Positions 3,926 to 50,397 of a DNA stretch of 64,000 bases are shown here, one piece after another. Below the pieces are notes generated by a model, which saw only the letters and a list, made by a program, of their open reading frames with translations, did not search any database and was not told where the DNA came from. How positions within the stretch are numbered: position 1 is the stretch's first letter; each line of letters opens with the position of its first letter. A program made the position numbers and the translations under genes. Location: NCBI RefSeq assembly GCF_054482525.1, contig NZ_CM137006.1, one strand, 5' to 3'.

Positions 3926-5887
3926 TTACCCTTTTCGCTTCGGCAATGTTTTCAGCAGCTCATCCGGACTTACGGATGCCACTACGCTTCCCGGTAACGG
4001 CATTTTCAGTATGTGATTTTTGATTTTGCCAATGACGTGCATCTCGCATGGGCGGCAATCAAACTTTAGCGTTAATACTTCATCGCCGTTAACCAGTTGC
4101 ATTGGCGTCGCCTTCCAGCTTTTGATATTGCCTTTCGCCTGTTTCGGGCACAGATTAAAGGCAAAGCGCAGACAATGCTTGGTGATCATCACCGGGACTT
4201 CGCCCTTCTCTTCATGTGCCTCATACGCCGCGTCAATCAGCTGCACACCATAGCGATGATAAAATTCACGCGCTTTCTGGTTGTATACGTTCGCGAGGAA
4301 ACTCAGATGCGTTTGCGGATAAACCGGCGCAGGATCAGCAACCGGTTTACGGCTGCCCCGCTGGTAACTGGCAAGACGTGCAGCATCCAGCATGTCGGCG
4401 GCTTCACGGCGGAACTGGTTTAACAGACTGTTTGATACAAACAGCGCACCCGGCAAATTAATTTGCACATCGCGGGCGTAATAGATGGTTTGCCCCAGTT
4501 TTGCCAGACCATCCTTTAGATTGTTCATTGCTTTTTCGGCGTTATTGGCTTCGTCGAAATGCCCGTCCAGCGTATGCGTGATGCTGACACCCTCTTCACT
4601 GGTGAGGGTCAGAATCAGTTGTTCCTGCCAGCCGCCCAGTTCAATGTCTACCGCCACCCGACGTTCGCTGGATGTTTTTGTCAGTGCCTGCTGCCAGTTA
4701 TGATCAAGATTACGGTTTAGTGGGTGATGCGGGCGAATTTTGTGCAACTCTGCTGGCATTTCATTGGGCCAGACGCGGTACTGATTTTCTCCGGTTTTCT
4801 CGACCGTATTGGCACGAAAGCCGACGACTTCACGTTTAATCATCACGTTCAGGCCATCGCCATTTGCCAGTGGTTCGGAAACGGCAACATCGAGATGATC
4901 TTTCGCCACTTTCAATACTTCACCCACCGGCAGGCCGATAAATTTCGGCGAATCGAACGCGCCAATATCGCCTTTACGGGCATTCACAAAATAATCTGTG
5001 CTACCACGGTTGAAAGTCTTTTCCGTCGATGGAACAAAGAAATGTTCAGTACGACCTGATGAAGCACGCGCCAGATCGCCACGTTCTTCAATAATGGCAT
5101 CCAGCATTTGGCGATAATGCGCGGTGATATTCTTCACGTAGCTCATATCTTTGTAACGCCCTTCAATCTTGAAGGAGCGTACGCCAGCATCAATCAGCGC
5201 GCCGAGGTTGGCAGTCTGATCGTTATCTTTCATCGACAGCAGATGTTTTTCATAGGAAACCACCCGCCCCTGATCGTCTTTCAATGTGTATGGCAAACGG
5301 CACGCCTGCGAGCAATCGCCACGGTTGGCGCTACGCCCTGTTTGCGCATGAGAAATGTAGCACTGACCCGAATAGGCCACGCACAGTGCGCCATGAATAA
5401 AGAATTCAATGGTCGCGTCCGTGGCCTGGTGAATCGCGCGGATCTGCTCAAGATTCAGCTCTCGCGCCAGCACAATCTGCGTAAAGCCAACATCAGAGAG
5501 GAACTTCGCTTTTTCGACTGTACGAATATCGCACTGCGTACTGGCGTGCAGTTCAATCGGCGGAATATCAAGTTCCAGAATCCCCATATCCTGAACAATC
5601 AGCGCATCGACGCCGGTCTGGTAGAGGTTGGTAATCAGCCGTTGCGCAGGTTCCAGCTCATCATCATGCAAAATGGTGTTAAGCGTGACAAAAATTTTTG
5701 CACCATAACGATGGGCAAACGGCACCAGTTCGGCAATATCTTTCAGGCTATTACTGGCATTATGACGGGCACCAAAACCAGGGCCGCCGATATAAACAGC
5801 ATCGGCACCGTGCAAAATAGCTTCGCGGGCAATGGCGGCATCGCGTGCCGGGCTTAACAGTTCAAGTCGATGAGAAGATACGGTCAC
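3926..5887 (-). CDS. ydcP: Peptidase U32-family protein (23S rRNA 5-hydroxycytidine synthase RlhA)
   Basis: Track ORF 3926..5929 (667 aa). The 653-aa form I recall for K-12 starts at the in-frame GTG at 5887 (VTVSSHRLELLSPARDAAIAREAILHGADAVYIGGPGF...). Confidence 0.85.
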   Translation of the reverse strand: MTVSSHRLELLSPARDAAIAREAILHGADAVYIGGPGFGARHNASNSLKDIAELVPFAHRYGAKIFVTLNTILHDDELEPAQRLITNLYQTGVDALIVQDMGILELDIPPIELHASTQCDIRTVEKAKFLSDVGFTQIVLARELNLEQIRAIHQATDATIEFFIHGALCVAYSGQCYISHAQTGRSANRGDCSQACRLPYTLKDDQGRVVSYEKHLLSMKDNDQTANLGALIDAGVRSFKIEGRYKDMSYVKNITAHYRQMLDAIIEERGDLARASSGRTEHFFVPSTEKTFNRGSTDYFVNARKGDIGAFDSPKFIGLPVGEVLKVAKDHLDVAVSEPLANGDGLNVMIKREVVGFRANTVEKTGENQYRVWPNEMPAELHKIRPHHPLNRNLDHNWQQALTKTSSERRVAVDIELGGWQEQLILTLTSEEGVSITHTLDGHFDEANNAEKAMNNLKDGLAKLGQTIYYARDVQINLPGALFVSNSLLNQFRREAADMLDAARLASYQRGSRKPVADPAPVYPQTHLSFLANVYNQKAREFYHRYGVQLIDAAYEAHEEKGEVPVMITKHCLRFAFNLCPKQAKGNIKSWKATPMQLVNGDEVLTLKFDCRPCEMHVIGKIKNHILKMPLPGSVVASVSPDELLKTLPKRKG

Positions 5888-5959
5888 ATTCTTATCCAGT
5901 AGCTGAAAAATGGCGGCTATTTTAGCCACAAGCGCGACGTTGCGAAATAGTTTTCCCGC

Positions 5960-6587: not shown

Positions 6588-7760
6588 ATGCGTCTGTTTT
6601 CTATTCCTCCACCCACGCTACTGGCGGGGTTTCTGGCGGTATTAATTGGCTACGCCAGTTCAGCGGCAATAATCTGGCAAGCAGCGATTGTCGCCGGAGC
6701 CACCACTGCACAAATCTCTGGCTGGATGACGGCGCTGGGGCTGGCAATGGGCGTCAGTACGCTGGCTCTGACATTATGGTATCGCGTACCTGTTCTCACC
6801 ACATGGTCAACGCCTGGCGCGGCTTTGTTGGTCACCGGATTACAGGGACTAACACTTAACGAAGCCATCGGCGTTTTTATTGTCACCAACGCGTTAATAG
6901 TCCTCTGCGGCATAACGGGACTCTTTGCTCGTCTGATGCGCATTATTCCGCACTCGCTTGCGGCGGCAATGCTTGCCGGGATTTTATTACGCTTTGGTTT
7001 ACAGGCGTTTGCCAGTCTGGATGGTCAATTTACGTTGTGTGGCAGTATGTTGCTGGTATGGCTGGCAACCAGGGCCGTTGCGCCGCGCTATGCGGTAATT
7101 GCCGCGATGATTATTGGGATCGTGATCGTTATCGCGCAAGGTGACGTTGTCACAACTGATGTTGTCTTTAAACCCGTTCTCCCCACTTATATTACCCCTG
7201 ATTTTTCGTTTGCTCACAGCCTGAGCGTTGCACTCCCCCTTTTTCTGGTGACGATGGCATCGCAAAACGCACCGGGTATCGCAGCAATGAAAGCAGCTGG
7301 ATATTCGGCTCCTGTTTCGCCATTAATTGTATTTACTGGATTGCTGGCACTGGTTTTTTCCCCTTTCGGCGTTTATTCCGTCGGCATTGCGGCAATCACC
7401 GCGGCTATTTGCCAAAGCCCGGAAGCGCATCCGGATAAAGATCAACGTTGGCTGGCAGCTGCCGTTGCCGGCATTTTCTATTTGCTCGCAGGTCTGTTTG
7501 GTAGTGCCATTACCGGGATGATGGCTGCCCTGCCCGTAAGTTGGATCCAGATGCTGGCAGGTCTGGCGCTGTTGAGTACCATTGGCGGCAGTTTGTATCA
7601 GGCGCTGCATAATGAGCGTGAGCGCGACGCGGCGGTGGTGGCATTTCTGGTAACGGCAAGTGGATTGACGCTGTTCGGGATTGGTTCTGCGTTTTGGGGA
7701 TTAATTGCCGGAGGCGTTTGTTACGTGGTGTTGAATTTAATCGCTGACAGAAACCGATAA
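6588..7760 (+). CDS. ydcO: BenE-family (benzoate-like) inner-membrane transporter
   Basis: Track ORF begins at GTG 6531; the 391-aa form starts at ATG 6588 (MRLFSIPPPTLLAGFLAVLIGYASS...). Polytopic hydrophobic protein. Confidence 0.85.
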   Translation: MRLFSIPPPTLLAGFLAVLIGYASSAAIIWQAAIVAGATTAQISGWMTALGLAMGVSTLALTLWYRVPVLTTWSTPGAALLVTGLQGLTLNEAIGVFIVTNALIVLCGITGLFARLMRIIPHSLAAAMLAGILLRFGLQAFASLDGQFTLCGSMLLVWLATRAVAPRYAVIAAMIIGIVIVIAQGDVVTTDVVFKPVLPTYITPDFSFAHSLSVALPLFLVTMASQNAPGIAAMKAAGYSAPVSPLIVFTGLLALVFSPFGVYSVGIAAITAAICQSPEAHPDKDQRWLAAAVAGIFYLLAGLFGSAITGMMAALPVSWIQMLAGLALLSTIGGSLYQALHNERERDAAVVAFLVTASGLTLFGIGSAFWGLIAGGVCYVVLNLIADRNR

Positions 7761-7794
7761 TAAAAAGCGCCATCTAACGATGGCGCGTCTGGAA

Positions 7795-8463
7795 CTACTT
7801 TTTGTTAACGTCAAACATGGTGGCATCGGTCGCCATGTCATCAATAACTTGTTTAATATTTTCGAAAGCCATTGGCGTACTTTCGTTATTCAGGTCTTTA
7901 CCTTCGCCCTGACGAACGACTTTGATAACCGGTTTATTAGTCGCTGCATCAATCAGCTCACCTTCAAAATACAGGCGAGTATCCATGGTACGGTGGCCCG
8001 TCGCCATTTGCGTCCCCGCGACCACTAATGCGACAGGAACCACTTCATAGAATTGCAGCCCTTCTTTGCTGGTATCAACACCGGTAATGGCCCCACGGAA
8101 AATCAGACTACGCGGCCCAGCGGTGGTAACCAGTGGTTTACGCTGCGCTATCGCTTCTTTCATTTCGGTGTTGGTATAGTTCAAAATTTTATCCAGAACT
8201 TTCTGCCCTACCTGGGTTGAAGGTTTCGGTACCGGATAATAAGTGACTGGGTTCCAGACTATGCTGTCATATTTGCTTTGATCAAAACTCGGGTCTACCC
8301 AACGTAAAACAGGTTTACCTGTTGCTGAGGTTGTTTCTTTTAAATCAGAGTAATTGTTTAAAAAACCAGAATATTTATCTGGCTGGGTGATTTTAGAGGC
8401 ACAACCAGACAGAGCCAACAAGCCGCATAAAGCTGCAACTTTCGCAATTGATGTGGTACGCAT
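7795..8463 (-). CDS. ydcL: Lipoprotein (DUF3313)
   Basis: 222-aa ORF with lipobox MRTTSIAKVAALCGLLALSGC. Confidence 0.85.
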   Translation of the reverse strand: MRTTSIAKVAALCGLLALSGCASKITQPDKYSGFLNNYSDLKETTSATGKPVLRWVDPSFDQSKYDSIVWNPVTYYPVPKPSTQVGQKVLDKILNYTNTEMKEAIAQRKPLVTTAGPRSLIFRGAITGVDTSKEGLQFYEVVPVALVVAGTQMATGHRTMDTRLYFEGELIDAATNKPVIKVVRQGEGKDLNNESTPMAFENIKQVIDDMATDATMFDVNKK

Positions 8464-8561
8464 GAATAGTTTCCTGAGATGATTATATTACTTTCTAAGT
8501 TATAGCAAAAAGCGCCGCTTCGTGTTGTGGCAAAAAAAGTGTTGGTGAAAATAAATTTTTC

Positions 8562-8603: not shown

Positions 8604-8765
8604 AAGTCAATCATCAGTAGTTAAATTTCAGTGAGTTAAGCGGCTAAAAAACTTCGACTACTGTGATTAATTTCACATCCCTTCGATAAAAAATATGCTT
8701 ACCGAAAAGAAGAACAGTAAACCATCTCAGCGTGGGGAATTTTCACGCGCTTTGTTCTTACCGGA

Positions 8766-28721: not shown

Positions 28722-31785
<3,064 letters not shown>

Positions 31786-38454: not shown

Positions 38455-38554
38455 TCGATTCAGTCTGTTGTTATTGTTGTGATTTATGAATCATAGCACA
38501 GGTCGTATCGACTTCTGGCCCTGGCGGTTTACCTCACCAGGGCCAGGCGACACG

Positions 38555-47136: not shown

Positions 47137-48066
47137 TTATGCGACCTTACAGGCATGTTGTTTTTGTGCATGGGCCAGCGCTGCTTCCCGTACCCAGGTA
47201 CCTTCTTCCCAGGCTTTACGTTTGGCGTCGAGCCGCTCCTGATTACAAATTCCGCGACCGTTTATCACTTCGTTAAACTCCTGCCAGTCGATCTCACCAA
47301 AGCGGTAGTGACCGCTTTCAGTATCAAAATGCAGATCCGGGTCAGGAACGGTCATACCGAGCATTTCAACCTGTGGAACGGTGTTATCCACGAAACGCTG
47401 GCGGAGTTCGTCGTTGGTGAAACGTTTGATTTTCCAGGCGAGACTTCTGGCGCTGTTTGGCGAGTTATCATCGTTTGGCCCGAACATCATTAAGGCTGGC
47501 CACCAGAAACGGTTAATGGCGTCTTGCAACATCTGCTTTTGAGCTTCGCTGCCCTGCGCCAGTGCCATGCAGGCTTCAAACCCCTGACGCTGGTGAAAAC
47601 TCTCTTCTTTGCAGATTTTCACCATTGCTCTGGCATACGGGCCATAAGAAGTGCGGCATAACGCCACCTGATTGACGATCGCTGCGCCATCCACCAGCCA
47701 GCCGATAACGCCGATATCAGCCCAACTCAATGTCGGATAATTAAAGATGGAGGAATATTTCATCCGTCCGTCGAGCATTTTTTGGTAGATGTCTTCTCTG
47801 GCACAGCCCAGTGTTTCGGCGGCGCTATAGAGATACAGACCATGACCGGCTTCATCCTGCACTTTGGCTAACAGAATGGCTTTACGCCGCAAGGTTGGTG
47901 CGCGAGTGATCCAGTTACCTTCAGGCAACATACCAACAATCTCGGAGTGCGCATGCTGCCCAATCTGGCGGATCAATGTCTTTCGGTAAGCATCGGGCAT
48001 CCAGTCCTGCGGCTCGATAGCCGTTTCCTGGGCTATCCGTTGCTCAAAGCGTTCTTCTTGGGTCAC
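47137..48066 (-). CDS. paaA: PaaA, catalytic subunit of the ring 1,2-phenylacetyl-CoA epoxidase (di-iron)
   Basis: 309-aa ORF beginning with GTG ([50 protein letters not shown]...). Confidence 0.9.
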
Positions 48067-48351
48067 GTCATCACCTTTACGATTCCAGTTTTCGTGATTT
48101 AATTAAAAACACGAATCACGTTGTTTTATGAAAGTTACACAATGGTTAACTAAAATCACAAATTTTGTATGTTTGAACTGTGACGGATTTCGCACCCTAT
48201 TTTTATAAATCATTATTTATCAGTGCATTAATGTTTTTCGCAGTTGCTATACAGATTGCATAGTTAACATTTCGTTAAAAGACCACTTGCTTTTTTATGA
48301 TTCGCGGTTTAACTATTAGCAACAGAAATGTGAAACATCTGGAGAGTAGCG
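48067..48351. promoter_or_regulatory. Divergent paaA / paaZ promoter region
   Basis: 285-bp AT-rich spacer between divergent paaA and paaZ; contains the inverted repeats listed next and a CRP-like half-site (tgtgacggatttcgca, 48179-48194). Confidence 0.6.
48080..48120. promoter_or_regulatory. Candidate PaaX operator
   Basis: cGATTC at 48080-48085 and GAATCA at 48113-48118 separated by 27 bp (remembered PaaX motif TGATTC-N26-28-GAATCA); nested inverted repeat CGTGATT (48093-48099) / AATCACG (48114-48120). Confidence 0.45.
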
Positions 48352-50397
48352 ATGCAGCAGTTAGCCAGTTTCTTATCCGGTACCTGGCAGTCTGGCCGGG
48401 GCCGTAGCCGTTTGATTCACCACGCTATTAGCGGCGAGGCGTTATGGGAAGTGACCAGTGAAGGTCTTGATATGGCGGCTGCCCGCCAGTTTGCCATTGA
48501 AAAAGGTGCCCCCGCCCTCCGCGCGATGACCTTTATCGAACGTGCGGCGATGCTTAAAGCGGTCGCTAAACATCTGCTGAGTGAAAAAGAGCGTTTCTAT
48601 GCTCTTTCTGCACAAACAGGCGCAACGCGGGCAGACAGTTGGGTTGATATTGAAGGTGGCATTGGGACGTTATTTACATACGCCAGCCTCGGTAGCCGGG
48701 AGCTGCCTGACGATACGCTGTGGCCGGAAGATGAATTGATCCCCTTATCGAAAGAAGGTGGATTTGCCGCGCGCCATGTACTGACCTCAAAGTCAGGCGT
48801 GGCAGTGCATATTAACGCCTTTAACTTCCCCTGCTGGGGAATGCTGGAAAAGCTGGCACCAACGTGGCTGGGCGGAATGCCAGCCATCATCAAACCAGCT
48901 ACCGCGACGGCCCAACTGACTCAGGCGATGGTGAAATCAATTGTCGATAGTGGTCTTGTTCCCGAAGGCGCAATTAGTCTGATCTGCGGTAGTGCGGGCG
49001 ACCTTTTGGATCATCTGGACAGCCAAGATGTGGTGACTTTCACGGGGTCCGCGACGACCGGACAGATGCTGCGAGTTCAGCCAAATATCGTTGCCAAATC
49101 TATCCCCTTCACCATGGAAGCTGATTCCCTGAACTGCTGCGTACTGGGCGAAGATGTCACCCCGGATCAACCGGAGTTTGCGCTGTTTATTCGTGAAGTT
49201 GTGCGTGAGATGACCACAAAAGCTGGGCAAAAATGTACGGCAATCCGGCGGATTATTGTGCCGCAGGCATTGGTTAATGCTGTCAGTGATGCTCTGGTTG
49301 CGCGATTACAGAAAGTCGTGGTCGGTGATCCTGCGCAGGAAGGCGTGAAAATGGGCGCACTGGTAAATGCTGAGCAGCGTGCCGATGTGCAGGAAAAAGT
49401 GAACACATTGCTGGCTGCAGGATGCGAGATTCGCCTCGGTGGTCAGGCGGATTTATCTGCTGCGGGTGCCTTCTTCCCGCCAACCTTATTGTACTGTCCG
49501 CAGCCGGATGAAACACCGGCGGTACATGCAACAGAAGCCTTTGGCCCTGTCGCAACACTGATGCCTGCACAAAACCAGCAACATGCTCTGCAACTGGCTT
49601 GTGCAGGCGGCGGTAGCCTTGCGGGAACGCTGGTGACGGCTGATCCGCAAATTGCGCGTCAGTTTATTGCCGACGCGGCACGTACGCATGGGCGAATTCA
49701 GATCCTCAATGAAGAATCGGCAAAAGAATCCACCGGGCATGGCTCCCCACTGCCACAACTGGTACATGGTGGGCCTGGTCGCGCAGGAGGCGGTGAAGAA
49801 TTAGGTGGTTTACGGGCGGTGAAACATTACATGCAGCGAACCGCTGTTCAGGGTAGTCCGACGATGCTTGCCGCTATCAGTAAACAGTGGGTGCGTGGTG
49901 CGAAAGTCGAAGAAGATCGTATTCATCCGTTCCGCAAATATTTTGAGGAGCTGCAACCAGGCGACAGCCTGTTGACTCCCCGCCGCACAATGACAGAGGC
50001 CGATATTGTGAACTTTGCTTGCCTCAGCGGCGATCATTTCTATGCACATATGGATAAGATTGCTGCTGCCGAATCTATTTTTGGTGAGCGTGTAGTACAT
50101 GGGTATTTTGTGCTTTCTGCGGCTGCGGGTCTGTTTGTCGATGCCGGAGTTGGTCCGGTCATTGCTAACTACGGGCTGGAAAACTTGCGTTTTATCGAAC
50201 CCGTAAAACCAGGCGATACCATCCAGGTGCGTCTCACCTGTAAGCGCAAGACGCTGAAAAAACAGCGTAGCGCAGAAGAAAAACCAACAGGTGTAGTGGA
50301 ATGGGCGGTAGAGGTATTCAATCAGCATCAAACCCCGGTGGCGCTGTATTCAATTCTGACGCTGGTGGCCAGGCAGCACGGTGATTTTGTCGATTAA
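48352..50397 (+). CDS. paaZ: Bifunctional oxepin-CoA hydrolase / 3-oxo-5,6-dehydrosuberyl-CoA semialdehyde dehydrogenase
   Basis: 681-aa ORF; N-terminal aldehyde dehydrogenase domain plus C-terminal MaoC-like hotdog domain. Confidence 0.95.

Follow-up and report, generated by a model that had tools for sequence, protein, structure and literature searches.

We are highly confident that the 285-bp spacer between the divergent genes paaA and paaZ serves the phenylacetate (paa) catabolic cluster of E. coli as its Pa/Pz control region, and that the outer inverted repeat found in it just upstream of the paaA start codon, in the putative promoter/leader region of paaA, is the operator of the repressor PaaX. 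This is already known biology. The initial annotation had regarded the feature as part of established paa regulation and not as new, and we agree, since the site is the published PaaX site of E. coli. The Pa, Pz and Px promoters of the paa cluster and their repressor have been characterised since 2000, and the observation thus carries little weight as a discovery. The added value of the present analysis is comparative, and it comes from 43 Enterobacterales and 16 Moraxellaceae loci. The comparison points to the pair of outer arms, with a constant spacing of some three helical turns, as the functional unit, with an interior that is free to vary; it places the CRP site with the paaA promoter; and it yields the exact bases for mutation in future work.

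Genomic context of the paaA-paaZ spacer

By the window we mean the whole 64-kb stretch of DNA that was analysed. The window is E. coli DNA; its segment around the paaA-paaZ spacer (47900-48500, 601 bases) matches E. coli PCN033 and two further strains at 100% identity, and it was found in 3,131 of 5,426 complete E. coli genomes, where the flanking genes are annotated as paaA and paaZ. The genes relevant to the present analysis are the following.

47137..48066, minus strand: paaA, GTG start at 48066 (48066-48064), first gene of paaABCDEFGHIJK
48352..50397, plus strand: paaZ, ATG at 48352, divergent from paaA
37504..38454, minus strand: paaX, the cognate repressor gene, by annotation and as a TIGR02277 equivalog

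On the minus strand, paaA is followed by the remainder of paaB-K, paaX and paaY. The PaaX protein of the window is a full-length TIGR02277 equivalog that scores 410.9 bits against a cut-off of 264.55. The spacer itself is AT-rich (about 30-32% GC), and the small open reading frames within it were set aside as mechanical.

The PaaX operator upstream of paaA

The operator and the adjacent elements of the paaA leader are as follows.

48080..48118, minus strand: Pa PaaX operator, TGATTC (48118-48113), 27-nt spacer, GAATCG (48085-48080)
48108..48122, minus strand: promoter-proximal 15-nt PaaX box AACGTGATTCGTGTT (AATGTGATTCGTGTT in K-12), one mismatch to the reported consensus WWTRTGATTCGYGWT
48064..48077, minus strand: paaA ribosome-binding site AAGGTGA (48077-48071) and GTG start (48066-48064), with AAGGTG invariant in the alignment of 27 spacers

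On the plus strand the repeat reads cGATTC (48080-48085), 27 nucleotides and GAATCA (48113-48118), and in the direction of paaA the leader sequence is AACGTGATTCGTGTTTTTAATTAAATCACGAAAACTGGAATCGTAAAGGTGATGACGTG. A GATTC-N27-GAATCA repeat upstream of the paaA GTG had been noted in the initial annotation, and it is indeed present there, with the operator 15-52 bp upstream of the GTG and the distal arm ending 3 nt before the Shine-Dalgarno sequence. The repeat is far beyond chance expectation: 20,000 dinucleotide shuffles were made of the 285-bp spacer, and GATTC-N26-28-GAATC appeared in 0.02% of them. Across the window, the exact form TGATTC-N26-28-GAATC occurs only twice, before paaA and before paaX (simulated mean 0.145), and three one-mismatch copies of TGATTC-N27-GAATCA were found against 0.23 expected. 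When two mismatches were allowed, neither this pattern nor the 15-mer PaaX box was enriched in the window, and the near-exact forms alone are informative.

The binding sequence of E. coli PaaX is TGATTC(N27)GAATCA (Kim et al. 2004, as cited in the review PMC9493321). The Pa operator matches it at 11 of 12 positions, the distal arm being GAATCG and not GAATCA. In addition, the site resembles the E. coli Pa operator of that work (PMC9493321) in locus, gene order, two arms with N27, Pz and Px boxes, and the presence of paaX in cis.

The two arms are inverted copies of a single element of about 7-9 bp (RTGATTCR), 33 bp apart from centre to centre. Within the spacer, the 15-mers at Pa and at Pz (48294-48308, plus strand) each have one mismatch to WWTRTGATTCGYGWT; this pair was also picked up independently by the repeat finder as an inverted repeat, with a 13-nt inverted copy lying in Pz. 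The 15-mer consensus reportedly goes back to del Peso-Santos in 2006, and Ferrandez et al. are said to have described the PaaX box in 2000 as a 15-bp imperfect palindrome.

Two of the one-mismatch matches in the window (4579-4617 and 30707-30745) are located inside coding sequence and have the mismatch in the arm core. The former falls in a minus-strand open reading frame of 667 amino acids (3926-5929), probably rlhA, and also holds a strong internal repeat of the GACACCCTC...GAGGGTCAG type; the latter falls in ynbC.

Conservation of the operator across species

We retrieved 80 loci from one-genome-per-species contigs using the PaaA protein, and not the motif, as the anchor. All 43 paaA leaders from Enterobacterales (including Citrobacter, Enterobacter, Klebsiella, Kluyvera, Cedecea, Buttiauxella, Providencia, Xenorhabdus and Serratia) contain an exact TGATTC-N26-28-GAATC(A/G) that ends just before the ribosome-binding site. 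The complete paaZ-paaA spacers of 27 loci were aligned with MAFFT. The invariant blocks comprise the Pz TGATTC with its -35 hexamer, the TGCGA-N6-TCACA CRP site, the TTG, TTAAC and TGTAACTT blocks of the Pa core promoter, both operator arms, and AAGGTG, while the 26-28 bases between the arms are without conservation. The seven sampled E. coli alleles likewise differ from each other outside the arms only. Because the arms are invariant, conservation alone does not distinguish recognition by PaaX from another constraint on the same bases. The assignment of the repeat to PaaX, which had been made in the initial annotation, is upheld by the 43 orthologous leaders taken together with the match to the published site, the inverted copy in Pz, and paaX in cis.

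A variant of the same two-arm design was found in all 16 Acinetobacter and Psychrobacter loci (L043-L061), where the repeat is GATAC-N27/28-GTATC. The change is a symmetric switch of the central base, affecting both arms, which argues that one protein surface reads both of them. In these genomes the repeat is located ~90-100 nt upstream of paaA, around a -35-like TTGACT or TTGATT hexamer, and overlaps the -35 region. We found no PaaX operator for Acinetobacter in the literature searched.

Several loci have individual peculiarities. Extra internal GAATC or GATTC copies are present between the conserved arms in L017, L019, L023, L026, L028, L029 and L084 (E. coli SWHEFF_58); they could be a third half-site, and their carriers are related lineages. 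In E. coli HS-02 (L087), the paaA start is decayed (GTG to ATA, with an altered Shine-Dalgarno sequence), paaA is unannotated, and the operator spacer has a 1-bp deletion. One contig labelled as a 'Bacillota bacterium' MAG (L006) encodes a PaaA 95% identical to that of E. coli behind an Enterobacter-type leader, and is probably a mis-binned Enterobacteriaceae contig.

The internal palindrome and strain alleles

The proximal arm of the operator also takes part in a shorter repeat.

48093..48120, no strand assigned: internal palindrome CGTGATT (48093-48099) / AATCACG (48114-48120), from the repeat finder, lineage-specific

The initial annotation had included this palindrome in the operator. It does exist at these positions, and its right-hand arm is common to the outer repeat, but it is not a part of the conserved operator. 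At least one 7-nt palindrome of this kind occurs in 57% of the shuffles of the AT-rich spacer, and the repeat is therefore at chance level. The K-12 spacer has no such palindrome, with AATGTGATTCG and AATTCACG in place of AACGTGATTCG and AAATCACG of the window. The difference is due to two substitutions: at 48120, immediately 5' to the proximal arm, T is replaced by C, and in the operator interior (placed in the 48098 or the 48113 region) T is replaced by A. Together they create the perfect 7-bp palindrome. The exact 74-bp Pa allele of the window is present in 11 of 3,074 genomes, in contrast to 1,629 of 3,018 for the K-12 allele. Being no more frequent than chance, missing from K-12, and differing both between and within species, the palindrome is, as judged from these sequences, not a component of the conserved operator and should not be used to define it.

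These observations bear on the proposal that a single PaaX dimer recognises CGTGATT-N14-AATCACG (48093-48120) as the functional site and that the presence of the far arm (48080-85) is incidental. The window carries the palindrome without a mismatch, and several other genera have internal GTGAATC copies of their own (L017, L019, L023, L026, L028). However, besides its chance frequency, its absence from K-12 and the rarity of its allele, the interior in which it lies is unconserved, whereas the supposedly incidental far arm is exact in all 43 orthologues. We regard this proposal as very improbable in comparison with an operator formed by the two outer arms. Somewhat less improbable, though still unlikely, is that the internal repeat would add a third PaaX contact to the outer pair in this minority lineage, changing the strength of paa repression or its sensitivity to the inducer; a third contact might likewise come from the GTGAATC copies inside the operators of Pluralibacter and Buttiauxella relatives.

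The two PaaX boxes also differ between the strains. The Pa box has AACGTG in the window and AATGTG in K-12 (L001), and in the Pz box the A at 48307 is replaced by G (GCGGT in the window, GCGAT in K-12, L001). Each change is one step farther from the reported 15-mer consensus. The published PaaX experiments reportedly used E. coli W.

The predicted Pa core promoter and the CRP site

Upstream of the operator we propose the following elements.

48133..48161, minus strand: predicted Pa core promoter, -35 TTGTGA (48161-48156), 17-nt spacer, -10 GTAACT (48138-48133) preceded by TG
48179..48194, no strand assigned: complete CRP site TGTGAcggattTCGCA, centre at 48186.5, about -61.5 from the predicted Pa start
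48218..48230, plus strand: IHF-like match TATCAGTGCATTA (WATCAR-N4-TTR), pattern match only

A scan of the spacer with the sigma-70 consensus returned neither the Pa nor the Pz promoter and gave only one chance-level match on the plus strand. We infer the Pa hexamers from the invariant TTG and TGTAACTT blocks of the 27-spacer alignment. Their position suggests a paaA transcription start near 48125, and this predicted start would put the operator at about +8 to +45 and the centre of the CRP site at -61.5.

The sequence at 48179-94 (TGTGACGGATTTCGCA on the plus strand) had been described as a CRP-like half-site lying nearer to paaZ. The site itself is real, but both parts of that description need correction. 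It is a full site, TGTGA-N6-TCGCA, with 9 of 10 consensus bases and a single mismatch to TGTGA-N6-TCACA, and its centre is closer to the start of paaA (~120 bp) than to that of paaZ (~165 bp). The pattern by itself is insignificant, with 4 matches in the window where 2.0 are expected. The site is supported instead by being conserved, with constant spacing to the promoter: TGCGA...TCACA is found at this spacing in the 27 genomes; it is also found in Providencia, Xenorhabdus and Serratia. Given the conserved distance of about -61.5 from the predicted Pa promoter, we assign this predicted CRP site to the paaA promoter and not to paaZ. The arrangement resembles class I CRP promoters such as lac P1 in having a 16-bp site of the TGTGA-N6-TCACA type upstream of a weak -35 hexamer at a conserved distance, although here the distance of -61.5 is counted from a predicted start site.

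The IHF-like match at 48218-48230 showed no conservation in the alignment of 27 spacers. IHF action at Pa was reportedly described by Ferrandez et al. in 2000.

Two further sequences were noted in the spacer. A perfect 8-nt inverted pair, GTTAACTA / TAGTTAAC, is located at 48145-48152 and 48261-48268, with both copies falling in blocks conserved across genera (the invariant TTAAC on the Pa side, and TTTAAT..TTAAC upstream of the Pz -35). This pair is unexplained by PaaX and CRP, and one of the SlyA sites that have been proposed in K-12 overlaps its copy on the Pa side (PMC5797941). In other Enterobacteriaceae (L004-L023), the block GATCACAnnGTTAAC...ATTAAA, aligned to 48255-48283 of the window, is conserved upstream of the paaZ -35, and is possibly a CRP half-site at about -70. 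Its E. coli counterpart is the degenerate GATTGCATAGTTAAC.

Companion sites at the paaZ and paaX promoters

Similar elements were found at the two other promoters of the cluster.

48287..48337, plus strand: Pz promoter with PaaX site, predicted -35 TTGCTT (48287-92) and -10 AACTAT (48311-16), degenerate distal arm GAAACA (48332-37, N28)
48294..48308, plus strand: Pz PaaX box TTTATGATTCGCGGT, with the arm TGATTC at 48298-48303
38456..38493, minus strand: PaaX operator of Px, TGATTC-N26-GAATCG, whose end is one base short of the paaX ATG (38454)

At Pz, both TGATTC and the CAAG/-35 sequence are invariant across genera. The location of TGATTC between the predicted -35 and -10 hexamers fits direct competition with RNA polymerase at this promoter. 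The Px operator is so near the paaX ATG that almost no space is left for a conventional leader or Shine-Dalgarno sequence.

The positions of these sites are relevant to the possibility that the repeat upstream of paaA acts as an RNA hairpin in the 5' leader, controlling translation or mRNA stability, and not as a DNA operator. The two arms are probably both part of the transcribed leader, beside the ribosome-binding site, the minimum-energy fold pairs them, and the variant arms of Acinetobacter are still complementary. However, the stability of the fold is no better than that of shuffled sequences (z = 0.27 and 0.17), and no Rfam match was found, for which reasons this reading was rejected. 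Moreover, at Pz and in Acinetobacter the first arm is upstream of or within the core promoter and would thus not be transcribed, and PaaX-dependent repression is documented (PMC9493321). An RNA-based role for the repeat is scarcely credible. Least credible of all is binding mainly by another factor of the AT-rich spacer (about 30% GC), namely SlyA, H-NS or IHF: in EMSA, SlyA does bind the spacer between paaA and paaZ of K-12, and it increases the level of paaA-K transcripts (PMC5797941), but the sites proposed for it, with centres 81, 136 and 239 bp upstream of the paaA gene, do not fall within 48080-48118 (PMC5797941), and the 64 kb contain exact copies of the repeated element only at the three promoters that PaaX controls.

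Proposed mechanism of regulation

Binding of E. coli PaaX in vitro and its release by phenylacetyl-CoA have been reported (PMC9493321, PMC4498308). [quoted passage not shown] At Px and Pz the repressor and RNA polymerase are in competition, but its action at Pa is of a different kind (PMC9493321). The hexamers predicted here (48161-48133) would place the Pa operator downstream of the core promoter, in line with the different action at Pa described in the review (PMC9493321).

The following sequence of events may be proposed for an operator of two outer arms. The spacing of 33 bp corresponds to about three helical turns, and both arms are thus on the same face of the DNA. PaaX would occupy them in the early transcribed region of paaA (about +8 to +45), probably as two dimers, one per arm. 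Bound in this way, it need not exclude RNA polymerase from the -35 and -10 hexamers, and may block a step after polymerase recruitment, such as the formation of the open complex, escape from the promoter or early elongation. The first pathway intermediate, phenylacetyl-CoA, would free PaaX from the operator and thereby induce the operon. CRP-cAMP, in what appears to be a class I position, would supply the activation that the weak Pa promoter needs, and IHF may assist at Pa. In the case of Pz and Px, this element coincides in part with the core promoter or the start region, and PaaX would compete directly with RNA polymerase.

The system has features in common with GntR-type operators, for example that of FadR, as both involve a winged-helix repressor that is freed by an acyl-CoA effector and a palindromic element. 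The FadR operator is a single site of about 17 bp. In comparison, the PaaX site is far longer, with two elements 33 bp apart that span about 39 bp.

Other observations in the window

Outside the paa cluster, ydcL (window about 7000-8500) is offset by 711 bp from the position expected from the PCN033 coordinates, which implies that an indel relative to PCN033 lies in the interval from about 8.5 kb to 28 kb. The tehB-ydcL spacer holds, at 8662-8677 and upstream of ydcL, a site that fits the CRP consensus perfectly, TGTGATTAATTTCACA.
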